From: a bacterium
GTDB taxonomy: Bacteria; Hinthialibacterota; Hinthialibacteria; Hinthialibacterales; Hinthialibacteraceae
Direction: 5' to 3'
Assembly (NCBI GenBank): GCA_963663405.2
Contig: CAXXSM010000095.1
Coordinates: forward strand, 1-28,099
Length of the DNA stretch: 28,099 nucleotides
Shown: piece by piece, positions 7,934 to 24,655 of the stretch
How the letters are laid out: every line of letters begins with the position of its first letter
Numbering within the stretch: the first letter of the stretch is position 1
Notes under the pieces: generated by a model
The model's input: the letters and a program-made list of their open reading frames with translations, nothing else
The model's database searches: none
What the model was told of the DNA's origin: nothing
Position numbers and translations under genes: made by a program

Positions 7934-9682
7934 ATGAAATCGTATCTTTCTCAAATCATTTCTCTCATTATTGTGCTCTTCATATATGTGTCTAATATCC
8001 CTTTCTCCATTGGCGCGTCTTCAACTTTGATTGGGCTCTACCCTACGGGGTACGAGAAAAATGAAAACGAGGACGGCTGGCTCTCGTTCGCGTATCAATC
8101 CAGCGCTATTTCGGTCCAGTCGAAAGAACTGCTATCAATTGATATTGACGCGCTGCGCCTTCGGAATTGGCGTATTGATGGATTCGAGATAATTGCGGGA
8201 GAGGAATCGATTCCCCTCACTCATCTCAAGGAATTATCCAAAGGCGCCCCCCCCTTTTTTCTTCGTTGCTGTGTGACATACAACGGCGCTTTGAAACAGA
8301 ATGGGAAAGCGCTCCCCTTCGCCAAGCAGAGGGCCTGCAGTCCAGAATTGCTGTTAATTCCCGCCAGCGGCGTATCCATCCAATCTCCTACACACCGGCG
8401 GGGATTGAACAATTCGGTTATGGCCATCAATCCATCTGGTTCAACGGATCGCGCTGGAACGCCGCCTGTGAATCTTGTCATGCTAATGGTGGATACGCTT
8501 CGATCCGATCATACGCCCCCCTACGGTCATCCCTTCGTGATCGCTCCGCATGTCGACATGCTCACGTCGTTGGGCGCCATGTTCACACAATCGTATGGCG
8601 CCTCTTCCTCCACCCGGCCCAGCGTCGGATCGATGATGACCGGATTGCAGCCGAAAGCGCATGGCGCGGTCCGGCACTCGACGCAAGGCGCGGCGCTGTA
8701 CAGCGGCGTTCCATTGCTGGCGGAAGCGTTTCAAAACGCAGGATTCACTACAGTTGGTATTTCGAGCAACGCCCAAGTTACCAGCAAATTCGGTTTTGCC
8801 CGTGGATTTGATGTTTACGAATGCCCTGTTTGGGAAACCGTGGTTACGCCGAAAGCGGTTAAACGGCTCAAAACGATTAAAGAACCGTTTTTCCTTTACC
8901 TGCATTATATGGCTCCCCATGCGCCGTATACGCCTCTCAAACCCTGGGCGGGGTTGTATGATGGGATGACGGAATATAAAGAGCAGGACGCCTACTGCGC
9001 GGAAATTTCTTTAGTGGATCGCCGTCTTGGCCGTGTGCTGCGTCAGTTGAGCGAACTGGATTTGCTCGATCACACGCTGGTCTGGCTGCTTTCCGATCAC
9101 GGGGAAGAGTTTTGGGAGCATGGCTGGAAAGAACATGGCGTCACTCTCTATGATGAAAGTACGCGAACCGTGTCGATTGGCATGTATCCACCGGTTATTC
9201 CCATGAACAAACGGATCGATCTCCCCGTGACACATGCCGATCTCTTTCCCACATTTTGCGACTTGATTAATTTAAAACCGCCCCAGTTGCTTCAGGGGAA
9301 AAGCCTTCTACCGCTTCTGCTTGGAAAACCGCCCGGCGAGCTGGCTTCCCGGCCGATTTTCCTGCATCACGGTGGAGGTCTTGGACCGGGAGTTCATTTC
9401 TCGGATAAAGACGGGGTGTTGTTGAATCACAAAAAACTGATCTGGTGGAATCAGAAAGATGAATGGGAACTTTACGATCTTCAATCCGACCCATTAGAAA
9501 AGAAAAATCTAGCCACCAGCGCGATCGATGCGAAAAGAGAATATGAAGGATTGATTCACGATCATGTTTCCGTATGCGAAACGATCGCCAAGCGGTACCA
9601 GATACCTGGCGATGGAGACACGGCTGTTGAATTAAGTCCGGAAGAGATCGAGAATTTGAAGGCGTTTGGGTATATCCAGTGA
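7934..9682 (+). CDS. Secreted sulfatase-like hydrolase/transferase (alkaline phosphatase superfamily)
   Basis: NLVMLMVDTLRSDH, STRPSVGSMMTG, PFFLYLHYMAPHAPY, SDHGEEFWEHG, ELYDLQSDP.E..NL, C-terminal LKAFGYI. Confidence 0.85.
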   Translation: MKSYLSQIISLIIVLFIYVSNIPFSIGASSTLIGLYPTGYEKNENEDGWLSFAYQSSAISVQSKELLSIDIDALRLRNWRIDGFEIIAGEESIPLTHLKELSKGAPPFFLRCCVTYNGALKQNGKALPFAKQRACSPELLLIPASGVSIQSPTHRRGLNNSVMAINPSGSTDRAGTPPVNLVMLMVDTLRSDHTPPYGHPFVIAPHVDMLTSLGAMFTQSYGASSSTRPSVGSMMTGLQPKAHGAVRHSTQGAALYSGVPLLAEAFQNAGFTTVGISSNAQVTSKFGFARGFDVYECPVWETVVTPKAVKRLKTIKEPFFLYLHYMAPHAPYTPLKPWAGLYDGMTEYKEQDAYCAEISLVDRRLGRVLRQLSELDLLDHTLVWLLSDHGEEFWEHGWKEHGVTLYDESTRTVSIGMYPPVIPMNKRIDLPVTHADLFPTFCDLINLKPPQLLQGKSLLPLLLGKPPGELASRPIFLHHGGGLGPGVHFSDKDGVLLNHKKLIWWNQKDEWELYDLQSDPLEKKNLATSAIDAKREYEGLIHDHVSVCETIAKRYQIPGDGDTAVELSPEEIENLKAFGYIQ

Positions 9683-9760
9683 ACGGCTTTTTTTATAAAA
9701 CCGGTATGATGGCCATTCATCCTTTATCCCATCTTCCCAAATTATTCAGAAACGGATAAG

Positions 9761-10540
9761 ATGGAAAAATTTGCAAAGGGAGGACGCAAGATGTCTCAGC
9801 ATACAATCCAAATAAATTGGAAGCGGATCATCCTCGCTGTGCTTGCGTTGAGTCTATTCCAATCCCCCGCGTTATGGGCGGCGGAGTGGAATGTGCGAAG
9901 CGGCGGGTGGTGTCAGTTAGTCGAAATTCCTCTCCCCCCACTTTCCGTTGAATCCGGGGATTCCACGGGGGATGATGAGGGTGAATTCATTCCTTTGTTC
10001 AATGGAAAAAACTTGGATGGCTGGATCATCCAAGGATTGGAAAAAGCCGGTCCTAAAATCAAAGAAGAAGGCGTTCTTCCGTTGGCCGGTTGGGACTATT
10101 GGGCGCTGGTTACAAAGCAGGATTTCAAAAACTTCATCCTGTGTTTCGATTGCAAATTCGATAAAAAAGGGAACAGCGGAATTCTGATCCACACCGCGAA
10201 AAAAGAGATTTACAAAAGCGCGTTTGAAATCCAGTTGGAATCAGGCGACGATCCAAAAATCATAAAACCGGAGCACAAAAGCGGCGCGATTTATGATCAT
10301 GTGGCGCCCCTTAGTAATCCCGCGAAACCGATCGGAGAATGGAATTCGGTCGAAATTAAATACGTTGAACCACTGTTAACCGTGATCATCAACGGGGTGG
10401 TTGTACAAGATAAAGTCGATCTCTCAAAAATCCCGGGATTAAAGCACAAATACAAAAAAGGGAGCGTCTCGATACAACGCAACGATTACAAAAAGGCTGT
10501 CTATTTTAGAAATATTCGTATACGCCGGCTGCCGGATTAA
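9761..10540 (+). CDS. DUF1080 (3-keto-disaccharide hydrolase-like) secreted protein, paralog 1
   Basis: LFNGKNLDGW, GNSGI, FEIQL, SGAIY, GEWN, FRNIRI; signal peptide; start may be ATG 9791. Confidence 0.85.
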   Translation: MEKFAKGGRKMSQHTIQINWKRIILAVLALSLFQSPALWAAEWNVRSGGWCQLVEIPLPPLSVESGDSTGDDEGEFIPLFNGKNLDGWIIQGLEKAGPKIKEEGVLPLAGWDYWALVTKQDFKNFILCFDCKFDKKGNSGILIHTAKKEIYKSAFEIQLESGDDPKIIKPEHKSGAIYDHVAPLSNPAKPIGEWNSVEIKYVEPLLTVIINGVVVQDKVDLSKIPGLKHKYKKGSVSIQRNDYKKAVYFRNIRIRRLPD

Positions 10541-10653
10541 TCCAAAGTCTCCGCTTCACGGTCCTTGAAAAAAATGACCAGCGAGTAAACATACTCTCTT
10601 TAAGGATTTTTTTCCGAAAGAGTGTACCGTTTAACATATACAAATCGTGTTTT

Positions 10654-10738
10654 GAGAAAACAACCTGCAAATGAAAATGAGTTGCGGGAGCTAATTCGAA
10701 CGAGAAAGCCTTAGGAACTCATTTTCATATAAATAAGG
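10654..10738. repeat. Intergenic inverted-repeat element, copy A
   Basis: Arms ATGAAAATGAGTT (10671-10683) and AACTCATTTTCAT (10716-10728), 32-nt spacer; homologous to copies B and C. Confidence 0.85.
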
Positions 10739-10785
10739 CGTTGGATTGTTTCACGCCACAACTAGACCAATCGATGGAGGTAACT

Positions 10786-11442
10786 ATGTTTTACCGTGTA
10801 AGAAATGTGTCCGTATTATGTCTGATTCTAATGACAGCGCTTTCGATCGTTCTTCCCCTGGAAAGTGTCTCGGCTGAAAATGAGGAAGGTTTTGAATCGC
10901 TTTTCAATGGCAAGAATTTGGATGGCTGGATCATCCAAGGATTAGAAAAAGCCGGTCCCAAAATTAAAGAAGAAGGCATTCTTCCCATGGCTGGTTGGGA
11001 TTACTGGGCGTTGATTACAAAGAAAGATTTCAAAAACTTTATTCTTCGCTTTGACTGCAAATTCGATAAAAAAGGCAACAGTGGAATTCTGATTCATACC
11101 GCGAAAAAAGAGATTTACAAAGGCGCGTTTGAGATTCAGTTGGAATCGGGCGACGATCCAAAAATCAAAAATCCCGAACAGAAAAATGGGGCGATTTATG
11201 GCCATGTGCCGCCTCTCGAGAATCCAGCCAAACCGATCGGAGAATGGAATTCCGTCGAAATCAAATACGTCGAACCTAAACTGACCGTGATCATCAATGA
11301 CGTCGTGGTCCAGAACGAAGTCGACATTTCCAAGATCGAAGATTTGAAACACAAATATGACAAGGGAAGCATCGCGATTCAGCGCAACGATTACAAAAAA
11401 GCGGTCTATTTCAAGAATATCCGGGTGAAACCTCTTCCCTAA
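10786..11442 (+). CDS. DUF1080 secreted protein, paralog 2
   Basis: Same motifs as paralog 1; GGAGG at 10776-10780 before ATG 10786; signal peptide ending VSA-E. Confidence 0.85.
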   Translation: MFYRVRNVSVLCLILMTALSIVLPLESVSAENEEGFESLFNGKNLDGWIIQGLEKAGPKIKEEGILPMAGWDYWALITKKDFKNFILRFDCKFDKKGNSGILIHTAKKEIYKGAFEIQLESGDDPKIKNPEQKNGAIYGHVPPLENPAKPIGEWNSVEIKYVEPKLTVIINDVVVQNEVDISKIEDLKHKYDKGSIAIQRNDYKKAVYFKNIRVKPLP

Positions 11443-11590
11443 ACTTCCTGGATCGCCATATGACTCTGGAATGATAAGTACGATAGGCCTCTTGGACGTT
11501 TCCGCGTCTAGGAGGTCTATTTCTTGCGTGTACTATGGGAATTCCATGTTTCATAATCTCTCTCATTGATTGTGTGAAAAGAATTAAATC

Positions 11591-11682
11591 ATCACGATCG
11601 AGATCACAACGTGCAAATGAAAATGAGTTGCGGGTGAAATCTAGAACGAGTAAGTCTCTGAAACTCATTTTCATATATAAGG
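11591..11682. repeat. Intergenic inverted-repeat element, copy B
   Basis: Arms 11617-11629 and 11662-11674, 32-nt spacer (21/32 identical to copy A by manual count); 5' part 37/38 identical to copy C. Confidence 0.85.
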
Positions 11683-11691
11683 GTACTGATA

Positions 11692-12357
11692 GTGGCAAGA
11701 AACAATCTACATGCGTTACTCTGGTCAGAATGGACCGAACCGAAAACTGTTTATCCAAATGGAATTCATGGGAAAATCGCTGAATTTCTTTCGGAACAAG
11801 GATTTACTACAACACTCGCTGATATGCAGGAGAAAGAGCAGGGATTGGATGAAAAACGGCTCCAAAAAGCCGATGTCCTTTTCTGGTTCGGCCATAAAAA
11901 ACACGATGATGTGAAGGATGAATACGTTCACCGTGTAGTCTGGCATGTGACGGAAGAAGGGATGGGATTTATCCCTCTGCATTCCTCGCATCTCTGCCGT
12001 CCGTTCCGGAAATTGATGGGAACGGCTTGCACGTTTCCCACATGGCAGGAAACGGCGGGGGAAGAGCGCATTGAAGTCCTTGCGCCGGATCACCCCATCG
12101 CGGAAGGCGTTGAGGATTTTTCACTGCCGCAGACGGAAATGTATGGAGAACCCTTCGATGTTCCCGAACCGGGCTCCGTCGTGTTTCATTCCCGATGGAA
12201 AACGGGGGAAGAATTCCGGTCCGGCTGCTGTTGGACGTGTGGGAAAGGAAAGATTTTTTATTTCCGTCCGGGACACGAGACATATCCCATATTTATGAAT
12301 CGAACGGTCCAGCGGATTCTGACGAATGCGGCGCATTGGGCGGTTAAGGAGAAATGA
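11692..12357 (+). CDS. thuA: ThuA-family trehalose utilization protein
   Basis: LWSEW..VYPNGIHG.IA, DVLFWFGHKKH, GMGFIPLHSSH, EMYGEPFDVPEP, GEEFRSGC, FYFRPGHETYP. Confidence 0.85.
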   Translation: MARNNLHALLWSEWTEPKTVYPNGIHGKIAEFLSEQGFTTTLADMQEKEQGLDEKRLQKADVLFWFGHKKHDDVKDEYVHRVVWHVTEEGMGFIPLHSSHLCRPFRKLMGTACTFPTWQETAGEERIEVLAPDHPIAEGVEDFSLPQTEMYGEPFDVPEPGSVVFHSRWKTGEEFRSGCCWTCGKGKIFYFRPGHETYPIFMNRTVQRILTNAAHWAVKEK

Positions 12358-12393
12358 TTCGTTCGATATAATTCTGGCCGTATGACTAACTCC

Positions 12394-12421
12394 TTGACAG
12401 ATAGAAAAAAAAAGGTATTCT
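12394..12421 (+). promoter_or_regulatory. Putative sigma-70 promoter of the rpmH operon
   Basis: TTGACA (12394-99), 16-nt spacer containing an A9 run, TATTCT (12416-21). Confidence 0.55.
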
Positions 12422-12467
12422 ATTTTACTTGTTGTTTTTCAGTGTAAAATTGTGGAACATAAGAACT

Positions 12468-12550
12468 ATCACGATCGAGATCACAACCTGCAAATGAAAA
12501 TGAGTCATGATCTGGATTTTTAGAGGATGATTTATTAGGCTCATTTTTTA
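12468..12550. repeat. Intergenic inverted-repeat element, copy C (diverged spacer)
   Basis: ATCACGATCGAGATCACAACCTGCAAATGAAAATGAGTC, 31-nt spacer, right arm GGCTCATTTTTTA (12538-12550). Confidence 0.8.
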
Positions 12551-12581
12551 CCAATATTTGAATGAAATGTGAATAGAAAGA

Positions 12582-12734
12582 ATGAAACGAACCTATCAAC
12601 CAAGTAGAATTAAACGAGTTCGAACTCATGGTTTCCGCGCGCGTATGAAGACACGTGGTGGACGAGATATCATGAACCGGCGCCGCAGAAGAGGCCGGCG
12701 CGCTCTGACAGTGTCCGATTCCATGCAGAAATAA
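12582..12734 (+). CDS. rpmH: 50S ribosomal protein L34
   Basis: Manual translation [50 protein letters not shown] (50 aa; absent from the ORF track); upstream of rnpA. Confidence 0.98.
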
Positions 12735-12771
12735 GATATTTTTCGAGGATTGTCTCGAAAGAAGATAAGAA

Positions 12772-13182
12772 TTGGATAACCGATTTCGCAAAATCGAACG
12801 GTTGCGGAAACGAGAGGAAATTCGAAACGTTCTCCGGAAGCGCAGACTGGATGGGACCTATCTGATTCTTCACGCTCTGCCTATAGAAGAGGCGGTGTCC
12901 CGTTTAGGAGTGATTGTCAGCCGCGCCGTCGGGAACGCAGTGACTCGGAACCGGGTGAAGAGGCGGCTTCGAGAGGTATTTCGGTGTATCAAGAATGATC
13001 TGAGTGGAAGGGTATCTATCGTCATCCGGGCAAAACCGAAAAGCCGTTCCGCCAGCTATTGGGATTTGGCGGAAGAGATTGAATTCCTCCTAAAGCGGCT
13101 GCGATTGCTGAAACGCGATGCGGCGGCGGAATCGGCGCAATGCCCAAACCCTTCCGGCGAAAAGCGCCAAGAGCGGGTTTAA
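12772..13182 (+). CDS. rnpA: Ribonuclease P protein component
   Basis: [25 protein letters not shown] (RNR motif); conserved synteny. Confidence 0.95.
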
Positions 13183-18822: not shown

Positions 18823-19542
18823 TTACGCCAAAAGATTAATTGTCGTTTGATTCATTTCATCCGCTGTCTTTGCGACGGCCGCATTCGCCCGGAAAATGCT
18901 CTCTTCATTTTGAAGCGCAATCATTTCACGAGGAATGTCAACATTTGAGTTTTCCAGGAATCCACTCACGAGGATTCCCCGCCTGTTTGTTCCCGGCGCG
19001 CCAACCTGTGGCGCTCCCGAACTTCCGGTTTGCGTAAGGAGATTGTTCCCCCCGCGCGATAAGCCTCCAGGATTGCTGAATTGCGCAATTTCAATCTGAC
19101 CGGCGTTCATGGTTTCTCCATCCGCCATCTGTGCGGAAATAGAGCCGTCGCTTCCTATTGTCACTGATGCCGCATCGGGTGGGATTGCGGTGGGAGGTTG
19201 AAGAACCAATCCTTGAGAATTGACCAACGCGCCATCCGTTCCGCGTGAAAAAGCCCCATCCCGTGTATAAAACGTATTTCCATCACCGTCCATCACTTGA
19301 AAGAATCCCTGCCCAGAAATAGCCAAATCAAGAGGATCGCCAGTCGGTTTCAAGACGCCCATCTCTTCCAATGAAGAGATGGCTGACACAACGGCGTTCT
19401 TCCCGGATGGACCTGTACTGCTCTGGGCGCGCTGGGTCCGGTAACCAGCCGTATTCACATTCGCCACATTATTTGCGGCGGTCTCTGCGCGGATCCGAGA
19501 CGCGTTTAAACCGGATAGGGCTGTGGATAGGATATCAATCAT
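18823..19542 (-). CDS. flgG: Flagellar basal-body rod/hook family protein (FlgG-like)
   Basis: ANNVANVNTAGY, TGDPLDLAISGQGFF, YTRDGAF, LENSNVD..EM; shorter than typical FlgG, orthology to flgG vs flgF/flgE uncertain. Confidence 0.7.
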   Translation of the reverse strand: MIDILSTALSGLNASRIRAETAANNVANVNTAGYRTQRAQSSTGPSGKNAVVSAISSLEEMGVLKPTGDPLDLAISGQGFFQVMDGDGNTFYTRDGAFSRGTDGALVNSQGLVLQPPTAIPPDAASVTIGSDGSISAQMADGETMNAGQIEIAQFSNPGGLSRGGNNLLTQTGSSGAPQVGAPGTNRRGILVSGFLENSNVDIPREMIALQNEESIFRANAAVAKTADEMNQTTINLLA

Positions 19543-19561
19543 CAGTATTTACCTCTTTGTT

Positions 19562-19590
19562 ATTTTACATTCTTTATTGTATTATGTCAA
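19562..19590 (-). promoter_or_regulatory. Near-consensus sigma-70 promoter of the flgG-like gene
   Basis: Minus strand TTGACA-17 nt-TAAAAT, then AGAGGT RBS and ATG. Confidence 0.75.
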
Positions 19591-19738
19591 AAATTTTTCC
19601 AGAAAACTAAATATTTATGCGTTCTTATTGCTATTCTTATCAAATGAGTTCTTAACGGAGTCTCATATCGTTTCCCTTACAGTGCTAGAATGGGTGTCGG
19701 AAGTTAAAGCAAAACGATTTAGATTTAACGGGGCTCCA

Positions 19739-20956
19739 GTGAATCGAATTAATTATTTATTGATCGGGATGGTCTTGATCTTAGTGCTGATCGCGCTTCT
19801 CTTTGCGGCGAAAACGCATGATGAAACCGTTCGCGCGCTGCCTGGCAGCCTCGCGATTGAAATGCGTCAGCTGCTTACGGCCGAGAATGTTTGGGATATC
19901 AAAATCGTATCTATCCATAGCCGTATAGAAGAACTAAAGAAGAAATACCCTTACATCGAGTCCATTATTCTCCGGAAATTTTACGGGGAAGGAAAAACCT
20001 GTACACTGTATCCATTCGCTTACGATTGGGATCATCCGGATTTCCCGCCGGATGAGGACAATTCCTATTTAACCAACGCGTTGAAGGCGGATGATGGTTC
20101 ACCGCTAGGCGTTCTTTATATTAAATTCAATTCCGCCCGCCTCCGTTTATTCAACGCCGCGATTCTTGGCAGCATGGCCGCGCTGATTATTGTCAGCATC
20201 TTGGGCCTCTACACCATCCAAACCAAAGACGAAGAAGTGCGGAAGACCACTTCACTCTTGGAAGAGAAGCAGCGTGAGTTGATCCATCTCGAACGTTTAT
20301 CACTCGTCGGTCAAGTGACCGCTAATCTGTTGCACGATCTTAAGAAACCTGTCTTAAATATCCGTGCGGAATCGGAATCGCTTCCCCCTGATGGCGTGCG
20401 GGACGCGATTCTGGAAGAGACGGATCTGTTTCTCCGCATGATCCGCGAATTGCGGCTGGAAGGATTTCTGCGGCAGGATTTAGAACACGCTGAGTTTGTG
20501 GATTTGGGCGAGATCCTGGATCGATCGCTGCGGCTGGTGAAATATGCGAGAAACAATGTTCAAGTGCAAATTGACTTACCCGGAGACTTGCCGTTTCTTT
20601 TTGGACAGCGCCATCAACTGATCCAAATTTTCTCAAATATCCTACTAAATGATTTCCAAGCGCTGGAAGGCAATGGTACCATCCTGATTAACGCCTCGCA
20701 GATCGACGAAGACGGCAAACCCTGGCTGGAAATCCACATCACCGATGATGGGCCGGGCATGTCGTTCGATGTTCTCACCCATATCTTCGAACCATTCTAT
20801 TCCACCCGGAAAACCGACGAGTCCGCGGGATTGGGCTTATACATCACTAAATCCATCGTAGAAACCATGGGCGGCGTCATCCATGTCAAAAGCATCCCCA
20901 AACATGGAGCCACCTTCACCCTCCGCTTTCCTATTACATCGGAGGAGACGGTATAA
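19739..20956 (+). CDS. Membrane sensor histidine kinase (two TMs, HisKA, HATPase)
   Basis: H-box LLHDLKKP, N-box QIFSNILLN, G1 DDGPGM, F-box IFEPFY, G2 GLGL; GTG 19739 chosen because the longer ORF overlaps the flgG-like gene and its promoter. Confidence 0.9.
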   Translation: MNRINYLLIGMVLILVLIALLFAAKTHDETVRALPGSLAIEMRQLLTAENVWDIKIVSIHSRIEELKKKYPYIESIILRKFYGEGKTCTLYPFAYDWDHPDFPPDEDNSYLTNALKADDGSPLGVLYIKFNSARLRLFNAAILGSMAALIIVSILGLYTIQTKDEEVRKTTSLLEEKQRELIHLERLSLVGQVTANLLHDLKKPVLNIRAESESLPPDGVRDAILEETDLFLRMIRELRLEGFLRQDLEHAEFVDLGEILDRSLRLVKYARNNVQVQIDLPGDLPFLFGQRHQLIQIFSNILLNDFQALEGNGTILINASQIDEDGKPWLEIHITDDGPGMSFDVLTHIFEPFYSTRKTDESAGLGLYITKSIVETMGGVIHVKSIPKHGATFTLRFPITSEETV

Positions 20957-22175: not shown

Positions 22176-22303
22176 AAAAGGTGATCGTATACGTCGAAGG
22201 ACCTTCCGACCGGCTTGCGATGTCTGAGGTCTTTCTTTCATTCATTGATAGAGAGAAAATAAAAGGAAGTGTGTCCATATTCTTTTTAATTGGTGAGTTG
22301 TGA
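22172..22303 (+). pseudogene. Truncated TOPRIM-like (DUF4276-type) partner of the ATPase
   Basis: ATGA overlap with the ATPase; MKKVIVYVEGPSDRLAM... carries the VEGxxD motif but stops after 43 aa. Confidence 0.65.
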
Positions 22304-22518
22304 TGGATACAAAAATATCGAAATCAAAGTTTAAGTCGAAAGCATTTGAATATTTTCGTCAGGTGGAGCGGACCGGCCAGGAATTAATTATTACGAATCA
22401 TGGGAAACCGGTCTTGAAAATCGTTCCATATGAAGATGATCCTTTTATAAAATTTAAAGCGCTGCGGAATCCAGTTTTGAAGTATGATGATCCGACCGAA
22501 ACCTGTGGGATTGGATGA
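22303..22518 (+). CDS. Phd/YefM-family antitoxin, copy 1 (C-terminus frameshifted)
   Basis: ISKSKFKSKAFEYFRQVERTGQELIITNHGKPVLKIVP; one extra A at 22499-22501 relative to copy 2. Confidence 0.75.
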   Translation: MDTKISKSKFKSKAFEYFRQVERTGQELIITNHGKPVLKIVPYEDDPFIKFKALRNPVLKYDDPTETCGIG

Positions 22519-22528
22519 TTGGGAAGAA
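22460..22528 (+). repeat. Direct repeat copy 1 (69 nt), 3' end of phd copy 1
   Basis: Matches 23452-23519 apart from one substitution and one indel. Confidence 0.9.
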
Positions 22529-22553
22529 TCGGGATATTTGTTGCGATAAATAC

Positions 22554-22582
22554 TTGTTTTGTATATACGTTTTGTGTATACT
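22554..22582 (+). promoter_or_regulatory. Putative promoter/operator of brnT-brnA
   Basis: TTGTTT-17 nt-TATACT overlapping palindromes GTATATAC and GTATAC; ATG follows 6 nt after the -10. Confidence 0.55.
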
Positions 22583-22588
22583 AGTGAT

Positions 22589-22897
22589 ATGAAGTTTGAA
22601 TGGGACGAAAATAAGAATCTCCTAAACCGTGAAAAACATGGTGTCAGTTTTTCCGAGGCAAAAGAAATATTTAATAGACCTGTTCTGACGTGGACGGATA
22701 ATCGGCGGGATTACGGGGAAATCCGGGAAATTAGTATTGGTTCTATCGAAGGAGTTCTGGTTGTTGTCGTTGTTCATACGAAGCGGGATAAGAGGATTCG
22801 AATCATCTCCGCCCGTAAAGCAAAAGCGAAAGAAAGAGAAAAATATCATGCCTATCTCGAAAGAACGTTTGGAGGAGATGAAATCGATAAAGGATGA
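22589..22897 (+). CDS. brnT: BrnT family toxin
   Basis: MKFEWDENKNLLNREKHGVSF...DYGEIR...IRIISARKA. Confidence 0.92.
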   Translation: MKFEWDENKNLLNREKHGVSFSEAKEIFNRPVLTWTDNRRDYGEIREISIGSIEGVLVVVVVHTKRDKRIRIISARKAKAKEREKYHAYLERTFGGDEIDKG

Positions 22898-23102
22898 TGA
22901 TATTGATACCTCCGATATTCCCGAATTGGATGAGCGTTTTTGGAAAGAGGCCCGATTGGTCATGCCCCAGCCGAAGACGTCAATTTCTTTGCGGATCGAT
23001 CCTGAAGTTTTGGATTGGTTTAAATCTCTTGGACGGGGATACCAAACGCGGATGAATGCTGTTTTACGCTCTTACATGGAGGTTCATAGAGGAAAACAAT
23101 AG
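22848..23102 (+). CDS. brnA: BrnA family antitoxin
   Basis: IDTSDIPEL...KTSISLRIDPEVLDWFKSLGRGYQTRMNAVLR; overlaps the brnT 3' end; ATG 22848. Confidence 0.92.
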   Translation: MPISKERLEEMKSIKDDDIDTSDIPELDERFWKEARLVMPQPKTSISLRIDPEVLDWFKSLGRGYQTRMNAVLRSYMEVHRGKQ

Positions 23103-23294
23103 CGTCCCATGCGACGAGATAATATGTTCTCATTTTCGACTTTTCTCAAAAGATAAATAGATTTTTTCGGAGAAGCCTTCCCTTAGAAAACCATTTTTGG
23201 GGGACTGCGAGATTCAAACTTATGTAGAATAATATTGTTGAAATTTGATTATTTATCTCTAATATGTAATAAATTGAAAGAGGTTTGGTTCTGG

Positions 23295-23528
23295 ATGTGT
23301 GAAAAAGTCTCGATAAAGATATTTGTACTGAATGCCATGGGATATTTGCGTCATGTTAAACAAACAGGCCAGGATTTAATCATAACCGATCATGATAAAC
23401 CTGTGTTGAAGATTGTCCCTCTCGAGAAAGGTCCTATGGAAATAGTAAAATCGCTGCGGAATCCAGTTTTGAAGTATGATGATCCGACCGAACCTGTGGG
23501 ATTGGACGATTGGGAAGAACTAGGATGA
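23295..23528 (+). CDS. Phd/YefM-family antitoxin, copy 2
   Basis: TGQDLIITDHDKPVLKIVP...YDDPTEPVGLDDWEELG; paralog of copy 1. Confidence 0.7.
   Translation: MCEKVSIKIFVLNAMGYLRHVKQTGQDLIITDHDKPVLKIVPLEKGPMEIVKSLRNPVLKYDDPTEPVGLDDWEELG
23452..23519 (+). repeat. Direct repeat copy 2 (68 nt), 3' end of phd copy 2
   Basis: Matches 22460-22528. Confidence 0.9.
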
Positions 23529-23553
23529 ATATAGGTATAAACGGAGGGAAATT

Positions 23554-24655
23554 ATGAAGGGCTTTTTCTTCTTGTTTTTTTTCGATGTTATATCTGTAAG
23601 CGCATTTCCTCAGAATATTAATACCCCAGTAAATTTTCCTGATCCGAACTTCAGAGCGGCGGTTGAGGAATATATGGGAGTGCCTTCGGGTGGGGAATTT
23701 TCGGCGCTGGAAGCCTCTATGAAAGATGGGGAATTGATTTGTTCTGGACTTGGTATCGAAGATCTGACCGGGATTGAACGTTTCCCCCGCTTTGGAATAT
23801 CTCTACTGCTGGGGCAATAAATTATCCAGCCTTGATGTTTCCAATAACACAGCTTTGATCGAGTTTGACTGTTTCGGGAACCAATTAACAAGTTTGAATG
23901 TCACTAACAACACTGCTTTGGTGGGGCTTAGTTGCTGGGATAATCAATTAACCAGCCTAAATGTCTCCAATAATTCCGCTTTGGAGTGGCTTATATGTGG
24001 TTACAATCAACTAGCCAGCCTCGATATATCCATGAACACTGCTTTGATTAAACTCACATGCAGTTACAATCAATTAATCAGCCTGGATGTTTCCAACAAC
24101 ACCGCTTTGAAATATCTCTACTGCAGTTATAATCGATTAACCAGCTTGAATGTTTCCAACAACATTGATTTGGAAAGGCTTTCCTGTGAGTTCAATCAGC
24201 TAACTATCTTAGATCTCACCAACAACACCGATTTGATTGAACTCAGCTGCAGTTATAATCAATTATCAAATCTGAATATTTCTAACTGCATTGCTTTAAC
24301 TCATCTTTTCTGTTGGGGGAATCAATTAACCTGCTTAGATATCTCTAAAAACACCGCTTTGGAGTGGCTGGAATGTCAGGAAAATCGATTATCCAGCCTA
24401 GATGTTTTTAACAACATTGCTTTGGAGAGACTCGTCTGCAGAAAGAATCAACTAACCAGCCTATCAAGTTTTGTTGATAATGTAGATATTGGTTTTAGGA
24501 ATGGTTTGGATGTCCGATATAATTATATAGGGTGTAATGATCCAGAATCCGCTATAAGAGATTTCCGAATTCTAAAAGAACGAATTGGTACTGGTTTTAG
24601 ATTCGAGCCCCAAAACGCATGTGAAACACTAGTGTCCAGTTGGTCATTGCATTGA
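23554..24655 (+). pseudogene. Secreted leucine-rich-repeat protein split by a +1 frameshift (or a sequencing error)
   Basis: ORF 23554-23820 has a signal peptide and internalin-like cap (FPDPNF...IEDLTGIERF); ORF 23774-24655 has the LRRs; deleting one C from C5 at 23784-88 joins them as ...IERFPALEYLYC, 366 aa. Confidence 0.8.
23789..24481 (+). repeat. Eleven 63-nt coding tandem repeats (21-aa LRRs)
   Basis: Consensus ALxxLxCxxNQLTSLDVSNNT. Confidence 0.9.

Follow-up and report, generated by a model that had tools for sequence, protein, structure and literature searches.

Three local copies of an inverted-repeat element upstream of DUF1080, thuA, and rpmH genes: a candidate two-site operator

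Three copies of an inverted-repeat element lie in three consecutive intergenic regions of a single bacterial contig, each ahead of a different gene. The element is genuine, apparently under selection, and so far strictly local: three copies on one contig. It is not a member of a known family by any test run. The reading we tentatively prefer, while giving it somewhat less than an even chance, is that the element is a two-site operator for a putative DNA-binding dimer and that it was spread by local duplication and conversion. Throughout, "the window" denotes the whole stretch of DNA analyzed, 28,099 nt long, which is a complete contig. Among the matches listed, the closest named homologs of its proteins come from 'Candidatus Omnitrophota bacterium' and Candidatus Hinthialibacter, labels that may point to the OLB16/Hinthialibacterota lineage. 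The relevant features are as follows.

9761–10540, + strand: DUF1080-1, DUF1080 / 3-keto-disaccharide hydrolase family, long form (Pfam PF06439)
10654–10731, + strand: copy A, with conserved left flank 10654–10670, left arm 10671–10683, 32-nt spacer 10684–10715, right arm 10716–10728, and, at its 3' edge, a 3-nt flank common to A and B
10786–11442, + strand: DUF1080-2, DUF1080, short form (Pfam)
11483–11520, + strand: 17-bp hairpin downstream of DUF1080-2 that runs into a short T-rich tail
11591–11677, + strand: copy B, with left block 11591–11628 (near-identical to that of C), left arm 11617–11629, 32-nt spacer 11630–11661, right arm 11662–11674
11692–12357, + strand: thuA-family gene, GTG start (Pfam PF06283)
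12394–12421, + strand: sigma-70-like promoter match (10/12), upstream of copy C
12468–12550, + strand: copy C, with left block 12468–12505, left arm 12494–12506, unrelated 31-nt spacer 12507–12537, degenerate right arm 12538–12550
12582–12734, + strand: rpmH (L34; Pfam), first gene of rpmH-rnpA-yidD-yidC-jag

The geometry that a preliminary description had given for the element was recovered when we returned to the sequence. Specifically, the three copies share one orientation (+), their left arms begin at 10671, 11617, and 12494, at intervals of 946 and 877 nt, and realignment of A and B gave perfect 13-nt arms around a 32-nt spacer. The arm–gap–arm pattern occurs three times in the window and not once in 100 of 100 dinucleotide shuffles. 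The window holds 31 inverted repeats with arms of at least 8 nt and loops of 3–60 nt. Perfect arms of at least 13 nt exist only in A and B, and none of 10 shuffles produced a perfect inverted repeat of that arm length. When the window was searched with a profile of all three copies, nothing resembling a fourth emerged (best additional match E=1.3), and no copy was detected upstream of DUF1080-1. The window has 13 intergenic regions longer than 60 nt, and the copies occupy three consecutive ones. From the previous stop codon to the start of the copy there are 130 (A), 174 (B), and 136 nt (C), and from the end of the copy to the next start codon there are 57, 17, and 31 nt, respectively.

Pfam confirmed that the genes following the copies are DUF1080-2, thuA, and rpmH, as first described, within the order DUF1080, DUF1080, ThuA, L34, RnpA, YidD, YidC, Jag. 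The catalytic domain of DUF1080-2 is 84% identical in protein sequence to DUF1080-1. The hairpin at 11483–11520, which 0 of 200 shuffles match in folding, is terminator- or stabilizer-like and parts DUF1080-2 from copy B. A second local duplication is also present in the window.

A and B are 82% identical over 78 nt. Their arms are identical at 26 of 26 positions and their spacers at 21 of 32 (Fisher p=6e-4). By comparison, the paralogues DUF1080-1 and DUF1080-2 agree at 27 of 52 four-fold sites, a level from which the A/B arms depart (p=4e-6) and with which the A/B spacer is compatible (p=0.26). Because arm identity between A and B is so far above spacer identity, the arms look constrained. 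Copy C keeps both arm cores and their spacing (31 versus 32 nt) despite a spacer that cannot be aligned. Left of the arm, the blocks GAGA, ACAAC, and TGCAA are unpaired and invariant in all three copies. Nothing speaks more strongly for a functional element recognized by its sequence than the constraint on the arms together with these invariant unpaired blocks.

B is a mosaic, as the preliminary description had it: its left block matches that of C (37 of 38 nt identical), its spacer and 3' flank match those of A, and the spacer of C matches neither (A–B spacer alignment, p ~0.002; C versus A and B, p of 0.55 and 0.69). The sequence switches sharply in B at the end of the left arm. Ungapped identity between A and B stops exactly 3 nt past the right arm and extends more than 7 nt on the left. 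The sharing of a 5' block by B and C thus stands; that the flank of A is unrelated does not, given that GAGA, ACAAC, and TGCAA lie in register in A too. Recent conversion without selection could account for the 38-nt identity between B and C. The DNA between stop codon and copy is unalignable between A and B (p=0.69), and we can therefore only infer that these copies were duplicated together with the DUF1080 genes.

Could the element be neutral debris? Local duplication and gene conversion would have left it where DUF1080 paralogues get repeatedly homogenized, and template-switch correction would have kept the palindrome perfect. The copies were not found outside the locus in a GTDB pattern scan, plasmids, or phages, and the second local duplication in the window is likewise in keeping with this account. 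So is a quick tree of 69 proteins of this family, which pairs same-contig paralogues as sisters in 3 of 7 cases, DUF1080-1 and DUF1080-2 with support of 99. This pairing points to repeated duplication or conversion in the DUF1080 family. However, neutrality does not predict arms preserved at 26/26 beside spacers at 21/32. Moreover, palindrome correction maintains complementarity within a copy, not identity between copies, and the right-arm core of C sits at the correct distance despite the unalignable spacer. We regard neutral debris as unlikely.

A double-stranded DNA site acting in cis, bound by a putative sequence-specific protein, would accommodate these observations. The element would consist of two inverted 12–13-bp sites, ~45 bp from center to center, the left of which is lengthened by an additional invariant block. 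The notion is that a dimer or a dimer-of-dimers could span the two arms, close to the promoter or on its downstream side, and repress or tune transcription of DUF1080-2, thuA, and rpmH. A and B may descend one from the other alongside the DUF1080 paralogue pair, and B and C may later have been homogenized across 38 nt by conversion or short-tract recombination. In this scheme, DNA, not RNA, would be recognized, and transcriptional control would be the outcome. The arms of A and B show no compensatory change, and this, combined with the 3/3 invariance of the unpaired GAGA, ACAAC, and TGCAA blocks, indicates recognition of sequence. Consistent with an operator, C retains its arm cores and spacing around the unalignable spacer while its arms are unpaired in context.

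What might bind? On the left side, three hexamers can be read in a 6-bp register, TGCAAA TGAAAA TGAGTT, and because this register resembles Fur-family arrays, a Fur-family regulator may be considered the leading but unproven candidate. In PMC545781, the dFUR-box consensus is WTGAAAATNATTTTCAW, a 17-bp palindrome, and Table 3 of that paper contains overlapping boxes shifted by 6 bp as well as paired boxes upstream of some genes. Analogous to those boxes, each arm here bears a TGAAAAT half-site, and the left side has 6-bp periodicity. Unlike the dFUR-box, five of the six arms match the second palindrome half poorly, with a fixed asymmetric GAGT in its place; the downstream genes are DUF1080, thuA, and rpmH, not iron or metal genes; and no regulator occurs among the 26 proteins scanned.

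Exactly the A and B arms, 4 of 2533 intergenic 17-mers in the window, come within four mismatches of the delta-proteobacterial Fur consensus, which was picked post hoc and tested on arms that are non-independent. Across the six arms, mismatches to WTGAAAATNATTTTCAW number 4, 3, 4, 2, 5, and 6, against a consensus that is delta-proteobacterial while the host belongs to a different phylum. Only the right arm of B is a near-complete box (2 mismatches), making it the one arm of six at two or fewer. Window-wide, matches with at most three mismatches are at chance level (3 found versus 2.16 expected). Given the post hoc consensus, the non-independent arms, the single near-complete box, the chance-level window matches, and the non-iron genes, we do not file the element as a Fur box. 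A and B might alternatively be bound by a sugar regulator. According to PMC8121099, DUF1080 and ThuAB both function in 3-keto-disaccharide catabolism, so joint control of DUF1080 and thuA would be reasonable. rpmH fits neither Fur nor sugar control.

The operator reading faces several difficulties. No regulator gene appears among the 26 proteins scanned (two long ORFs, at 18823–19542 and 19523–20956, lie outside the scan), and co-control of rpmH and sugar genes has no obvious logic. If the 12394–12421 promoter is real, C would lie ~65–125 nt inside the transcribed region, a long way downstream for simple repression; and if that promoter is the one serving rpmH, C lies in the rpmH leader. Sigma-70-like matches are common by chance (3 found versus 5.0 expected). 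A and B also fold stably as sense-strand RNA, the unalignable stop-to-copy DNA weakens the duplication history, recent conversion could yield the B/C identity with no selection, and the GTDB exact-pattern scan revealed no homologous site in another species. Should the element nonetheless be an operator, an uncultured lineage would gain a candidate regulatory motif, and the locus would be an example of a control module copied between adjacent 5' regions. It would, unexpectedly, tie rpmH-rnpA-yidD-yidC, encoding ribosomal-protein and membrane-biogenesis functions, to 3-keto-glycoside catabolism.

The stable folding of A and B raises the alternative that the element acts as RNA, via a long AU-rich stem in a leader or intercistronic region. 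Its roles could be as an endonuclease cleavage site, in stabilization of downstream mRNA, or in translation gating, with C as a switchable version in the rpmH leader. A and B, folded with their surroundings, show arm pairing at probabilities near 1 (0.5–1.0). Sense folds beat antisense folds (-21.6 versus -17.8 and -18.3 versus -13.2 kcal/mol), and the fold z-score of A is -3.07. By contrast, B (z -1.90) and C (z -0.32) fold no better than shuffles, and the inner folds of A and B differ.

The preliminary description had held that C, with its 31-nt unrelated spacer, keeps the pairing. The spacer was as described; the pairing is retained only in part, with 9 of 13 positions complementary and the two outer pairs broken. 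In register, the outer positions are A.A and T.T, the third is G.T, eight are Watson–Crick, one is T.G, and one is a double change to C-G. In favor of RNA, sense-strand pairing is feasible at every one of the inner 11 positions of C, counting one double change and two G.U, and three different folds of C lie within 4 kcal/mol of each other. However, with 70 nt of upstream and 60 nt of downstream sequence included in the fold, the arms of C pair with probability 0.00. Covariation among the three sequences comes down to this one double change, at the inner edge of the stem, and the unpaired 5' flank shows the same invariance as the arms. Thus, of the structured cis-regulatory RNA that had been put forward, the general regulatory role holds up (the arms are constrained, and the copies lie 17–57 nt before start codons). 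The RNA structure is left doubtful by the one compensatory pair in three copies, the invariant unpaired 5' flank, and the failure of C to fold arm-to-arm in context.

As first described, no riboswitch pattern is evident: an Rfam scan of the window gave 0 matches at gathering score, which counts against RNA, and relaxing the threshold to E of 10 over 9600–12800 gave a single chance match, inside a gene. The intergenic stem-loops of the cip-cel operon, which the abstract of PMC10311766 presents as cleavage and stability signals, offer a precedent. As there, stem-loops here lie in consecutive intergenic regions between co-oriented genes. The cip-cel signals, according to that abstract, require GC-rich stems, whereas the element here is AU-rich with a 31–32-nt interior. 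Also unlike the cip-cel stem-loops as presented there, the copies here are homologous in sequence, and C is without a stem in context. Several GTDB loci that match the pattern share the stem base but stand as long, isolated hairpins, which would suit an RNA function. On balance, we hold an RNA function to be possible but rather doubtful. Separately, the copies were considered as intrinsic terminators (short GC-rich stem, 3–8-nt loop, U-tract) and rejected: none is among the six terminator-like sites in 9500–12800.

Two further alternatives invoke mobility. In the first, the copies derive from a miniature inverted-repeat transposable element (MITE), a non-autonomous remnant of an insertion sequence with A and B intact and C decayed; one example would be a member of the IS1111 family that has lost all but its sub-terminal inverted repeats and went into a favored target site. 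The IS1111 family is compatible with a missing target duplication. IS1111 elements, according to PMC11187229, have 11–13-bp sub-terminal repeats with extensions of 7 bp on the left and 3 bp on the right. MITEs, according to PMC10969869, are AT-rich, intergenic, and fold into stem-loops, and their target-site duplications decay with age. The element here has arms of IS1111 repeat size (all 13 positions complementary in A and B, 9 of 13 in C), an end to A/B identity 3 nt beyond the right arm that would correspond to the IS1111 right extension, and the AT-rich, intergenic, stem-loop character of MITEs. Judged by PMC11187229 and PMC10969869, the 13-bp inverted repeats, the 3-nt right extension, and the AT-rich intergenic site are points of likeness; the lack of a transposase (of the DEDD type for IS1111) among the contig's scanned proteins, the longer left identity, and the lack of dispersal within the contig are points of difference.

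The left identity far exceeds 7 nt, the interior of C is unrelated to those of A and B, and no transposase is among the 26 proteins scanned. No direct repeats of at least 4 nt flank B or C, and A has one distant 4-mer. Dispersed insertion would be expected to hit three consecutive, same-orientation sites among 13 regions only rarely (~0.01). Finally, arms that outlast the spacer over a long divergence imply ongoing selection. The earlier suggestion of a non-autonomous mobile repeat therefore survives as an improbable one, set against the missing target duplication, the absence of a common interior in C, and the placement in three consecutive of 13 intergenic regions. By Pfam, the 26 window proteins scanned include no recombinase, transposase, or transcription regulator.

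In the second alternative, site-specific recombination built an array, each copy marks one of its junctions, and the core common to them lies in the left block. The structures of A, B, and C would be X-core-P', P-core-P', and P-core-Y, respectively, as if DUF1080-2 and thuA circles had integrated in tandem before rpmH. The mosaic B, with its sharp switch, fits this tandem-integration pattern exactly. Each interval (946 and 877 nt) holds one gene, and, as ssDNA, A folds better than 199 of 200 shuffles. C, however, retains a right arm that would be dispensable for a pure chromosomal Y half, no recombinase is among the 26 proteins scanned, and phages and plasmids yielded no DNA match. Such an array is very unlikely, in our estimation.

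Integron attC sites, according to PMC5027507, have RYYYAAC/GTTRRRY boxes pairing at the hairpin foot, extrahelical bases, and an unpaired central spacer. The statement that the element matches no attC pattern was borne out: RYYYAAC and GTTRRRY boxes occur together in one of the three intergenic regions, where neither strand, folded as ssDNA, pairs them. Boxes are absent around B and C, and the pair around A is unpaired, which tells against cassettes. Extrahelical bases are lacking in the A and B arms, which form perfect 13-bp stems without bulges. Relative to attC arrays as portrayed in PMC5027507, the locus is alike in having one palindromic site between successive single genes and a uniform orientation. 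It is unlike them in having no paired R boxes, no extrahelical bases, no integrase among the 26 proteins, and an old gene linkage, and in placing its sites closer to the next start codon than to the previous stop.

The age of the linkage was gauged from relatives, with equal size of the longest reported contig among homologs as a proxy that does not see gene order. Compared were 69 close DUF1080 homologs (of at least 120, with the window's two and 49 distant ones excluded), 35 close YidC homologs (of at least 120), and at least 119 ThuA homologs. Among the 69, seven contig sizes are common to two DUF1080 proteins, mostly a long and a short form, as here. Among the matches listed, a contig size of 61,307 nt is common to DUF1080, ThuA, and YidC homologs under the same organism label, 21,844 is common to ThuA and YidC, and 32,460 to DUF1080 and YidC. 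One more recurring size, 1,394, involves different sources and is probably a coincidence. Since the size-sharing relatives are 45–55% identical in YidC, the neighborhood would be old in at least some lines, again counter to cassettes. In their favor, 2 of 22 distinct DUF1080 contig sizes of at least 15 kb recur among the listed YidC homologs, and with only this number recurring, DUF1080–YidC linkage does not appear to be universal. Single-gene cassettes, which the preliminary description had entertained, are thus poorly supported: there is no recombinase among 26 proteins and no attC fold, and DUF1080, ThuA, and YidC homologs have contig sizes in common in relatives. If the copies were recombination junctions, they would represent a new cassette system. 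That this is an undescribed, non-integron single-gene cassette system, with a ~23-bp core plus an inverted accessory arm, a recombinase elsewhere in the genome, and two sugar-catabolism genes parked before rpmH, strikes us as highly improbable. More generally, a new mobile system is probably not what the locus holds.

Beyond the contig, we scanned GTDB species genomes for the positions invariant in all three copies. The pattern requires exact arms, its short gap would not capture a full-length insertion sequence, and the scan did not return the window itself, so this genome is apparently outside the species representatives. It yielded nine loci, all single-copy and in unrelated taxa. None of the nine has the TGCAA flank, and none shares the flanks of the element. 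Their best profile E is 0.016, although they were preselected for the pattern. As gene starts they were rejected, with 1 of 9 opening a long ORF. Several have this A-tract/T-tract foot but belong to longer hairpins that stand alone. Because the scan demands exact arms, the result is limited to the exact element: it shows that this form is not widespread, and a diverged form in relatives is compatible with it.

The blastn searches gave chance-level results. Copy B returned 0 records from plasmids and one from phages (21% cover, E=1). Copies A and C returned 6 and 14 plasmid records, respectively (cover at most 25%, best E 0.05), and the region 10540–12600 returned 6 phage records (2% cover). 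Confinement to this locus had been named as a mark of simple duplication debris. Indeed, no copies outside the locus were found in the GTDB exact-pattern scan, plasmids, or phages, a statement that extends to those collections and the 28,099-nt contig. Judged by titles and the openings of abstracts, literature matches to 12–16-nt arm strings include no bacterial-repeat paper, and a listing of literature on rpmH promoter operators with an inverted repeat contained nothing relevant. At present, the element is genuine but a curiosity of this one locus, with all three copies on a single contig.

Other possibilities were examined and set aside. All three left arms open ORFs of 6–9 codons. As leader peptides these were rejected: depending on the copy, 42–51% of shuffled spacers give a stop within 10 codons, and a Shine-Dalgarno sequence is lacking. 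A CRP-like site in the left flank of B and C has 3/10 mismatches, is one of eight such sites in 3.1 kb, is missing from A, and is therefore not supported. Regarding an oriC/parS cluster near rpmH, a motif search gave no perfect DnaA box in 9600–12700 and no parS within four mismatches, dnaA is absent from the 26 proteins scanned, and GC skew shows no origin signal. The same 9600–12700 interval contains 11 one-mismatch DnaA boxes, about half of them inside genes.

The sequences upstream of copies A and C of the inverted-repeat element, which precede the short-form DUF1080 gene and rpmH, respectively, show a weak collinear alignment of ~100 nt (10541-10644 versus 12358-12467; p about 0.04). Both a TTGA box and a sequence resembling a -10 box fall within the alignment. 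This similarity may reflect either a deeper homology or promoter features common to the two regions. Copy C (12468-12483) and copy B, upstream of thuA (11591-11606), each contain a pair of GATC sites with 2 nt between them, absent from A. The paired sites of B and C sit within a CRP/FNR-like half-palindrome, which A lacks.

Copy C (12468-12550) can adopt three mutually exclusive folds, of -16.5, -13.8, and -12.5 kcal/mol. One is a 10-bp stem in which the left arm pairs with the copy's own spacer, including two G.U pairs. The A-tract/T-tract foot of the element's stem also occurs on long lone hairpins in unrelated genomes, at loci identified by an exact arm-pattern scan of GTDB species genomes:

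L002, 9383-9438, long lone hairpin
L003, 4059-4115, long lone hairpin, flanked by convergent ORFs
L005, 10001-10056, long lone hairpin
L008, 10001-10057, long lone hairpin, 10 nt from a tRNA-Pro gene

Among the genes adjoining the element, the long- and short-form DUF1080 pair (9761-11442) is found repeatedly across the lineage, with the following homologous protein pairs:

P0009/P0029
P0019/P0044
P0011/P0014
P0016/P0017
P0030/P0038

Because the long and short forms are mutual closest relatives in some contigs, we suggest that the DUF1080 catalytic domain has been repeatedly homogenized while the N-termini remained different. A ThuA protein, P0121, is 99% identical to that of the window but is encoded by another contig, of 5,067 nt; therefore, a second assembly of the thuA locus exists.

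Typically, rpmH neighbors a divergent dnaA gene. Here, the gene preceding rpmH is thuA (intergenic region 12358-12581), and no DnaA-box cluster was found in 9600-12700. Thus, the replication origin probably resides elsewhere.

Farther along the window, a Phd/YefM-like antitoxin gene is present twice (22302-22550 and 23294-23541), bracketing the brnT-brnA pair (22559-23102) as direct repeats ~990 nt apart. The copies are 71% identical over 199 nt; their 3' ends are nearly the same, with a single-base gap in one. A leucine-rich-repeat gene containing nine 63-nt units lies at 23554-24655. Two overlapping frames seem to divide it near 23774-23820, a split that appears to be a frameshift or an assembly error.
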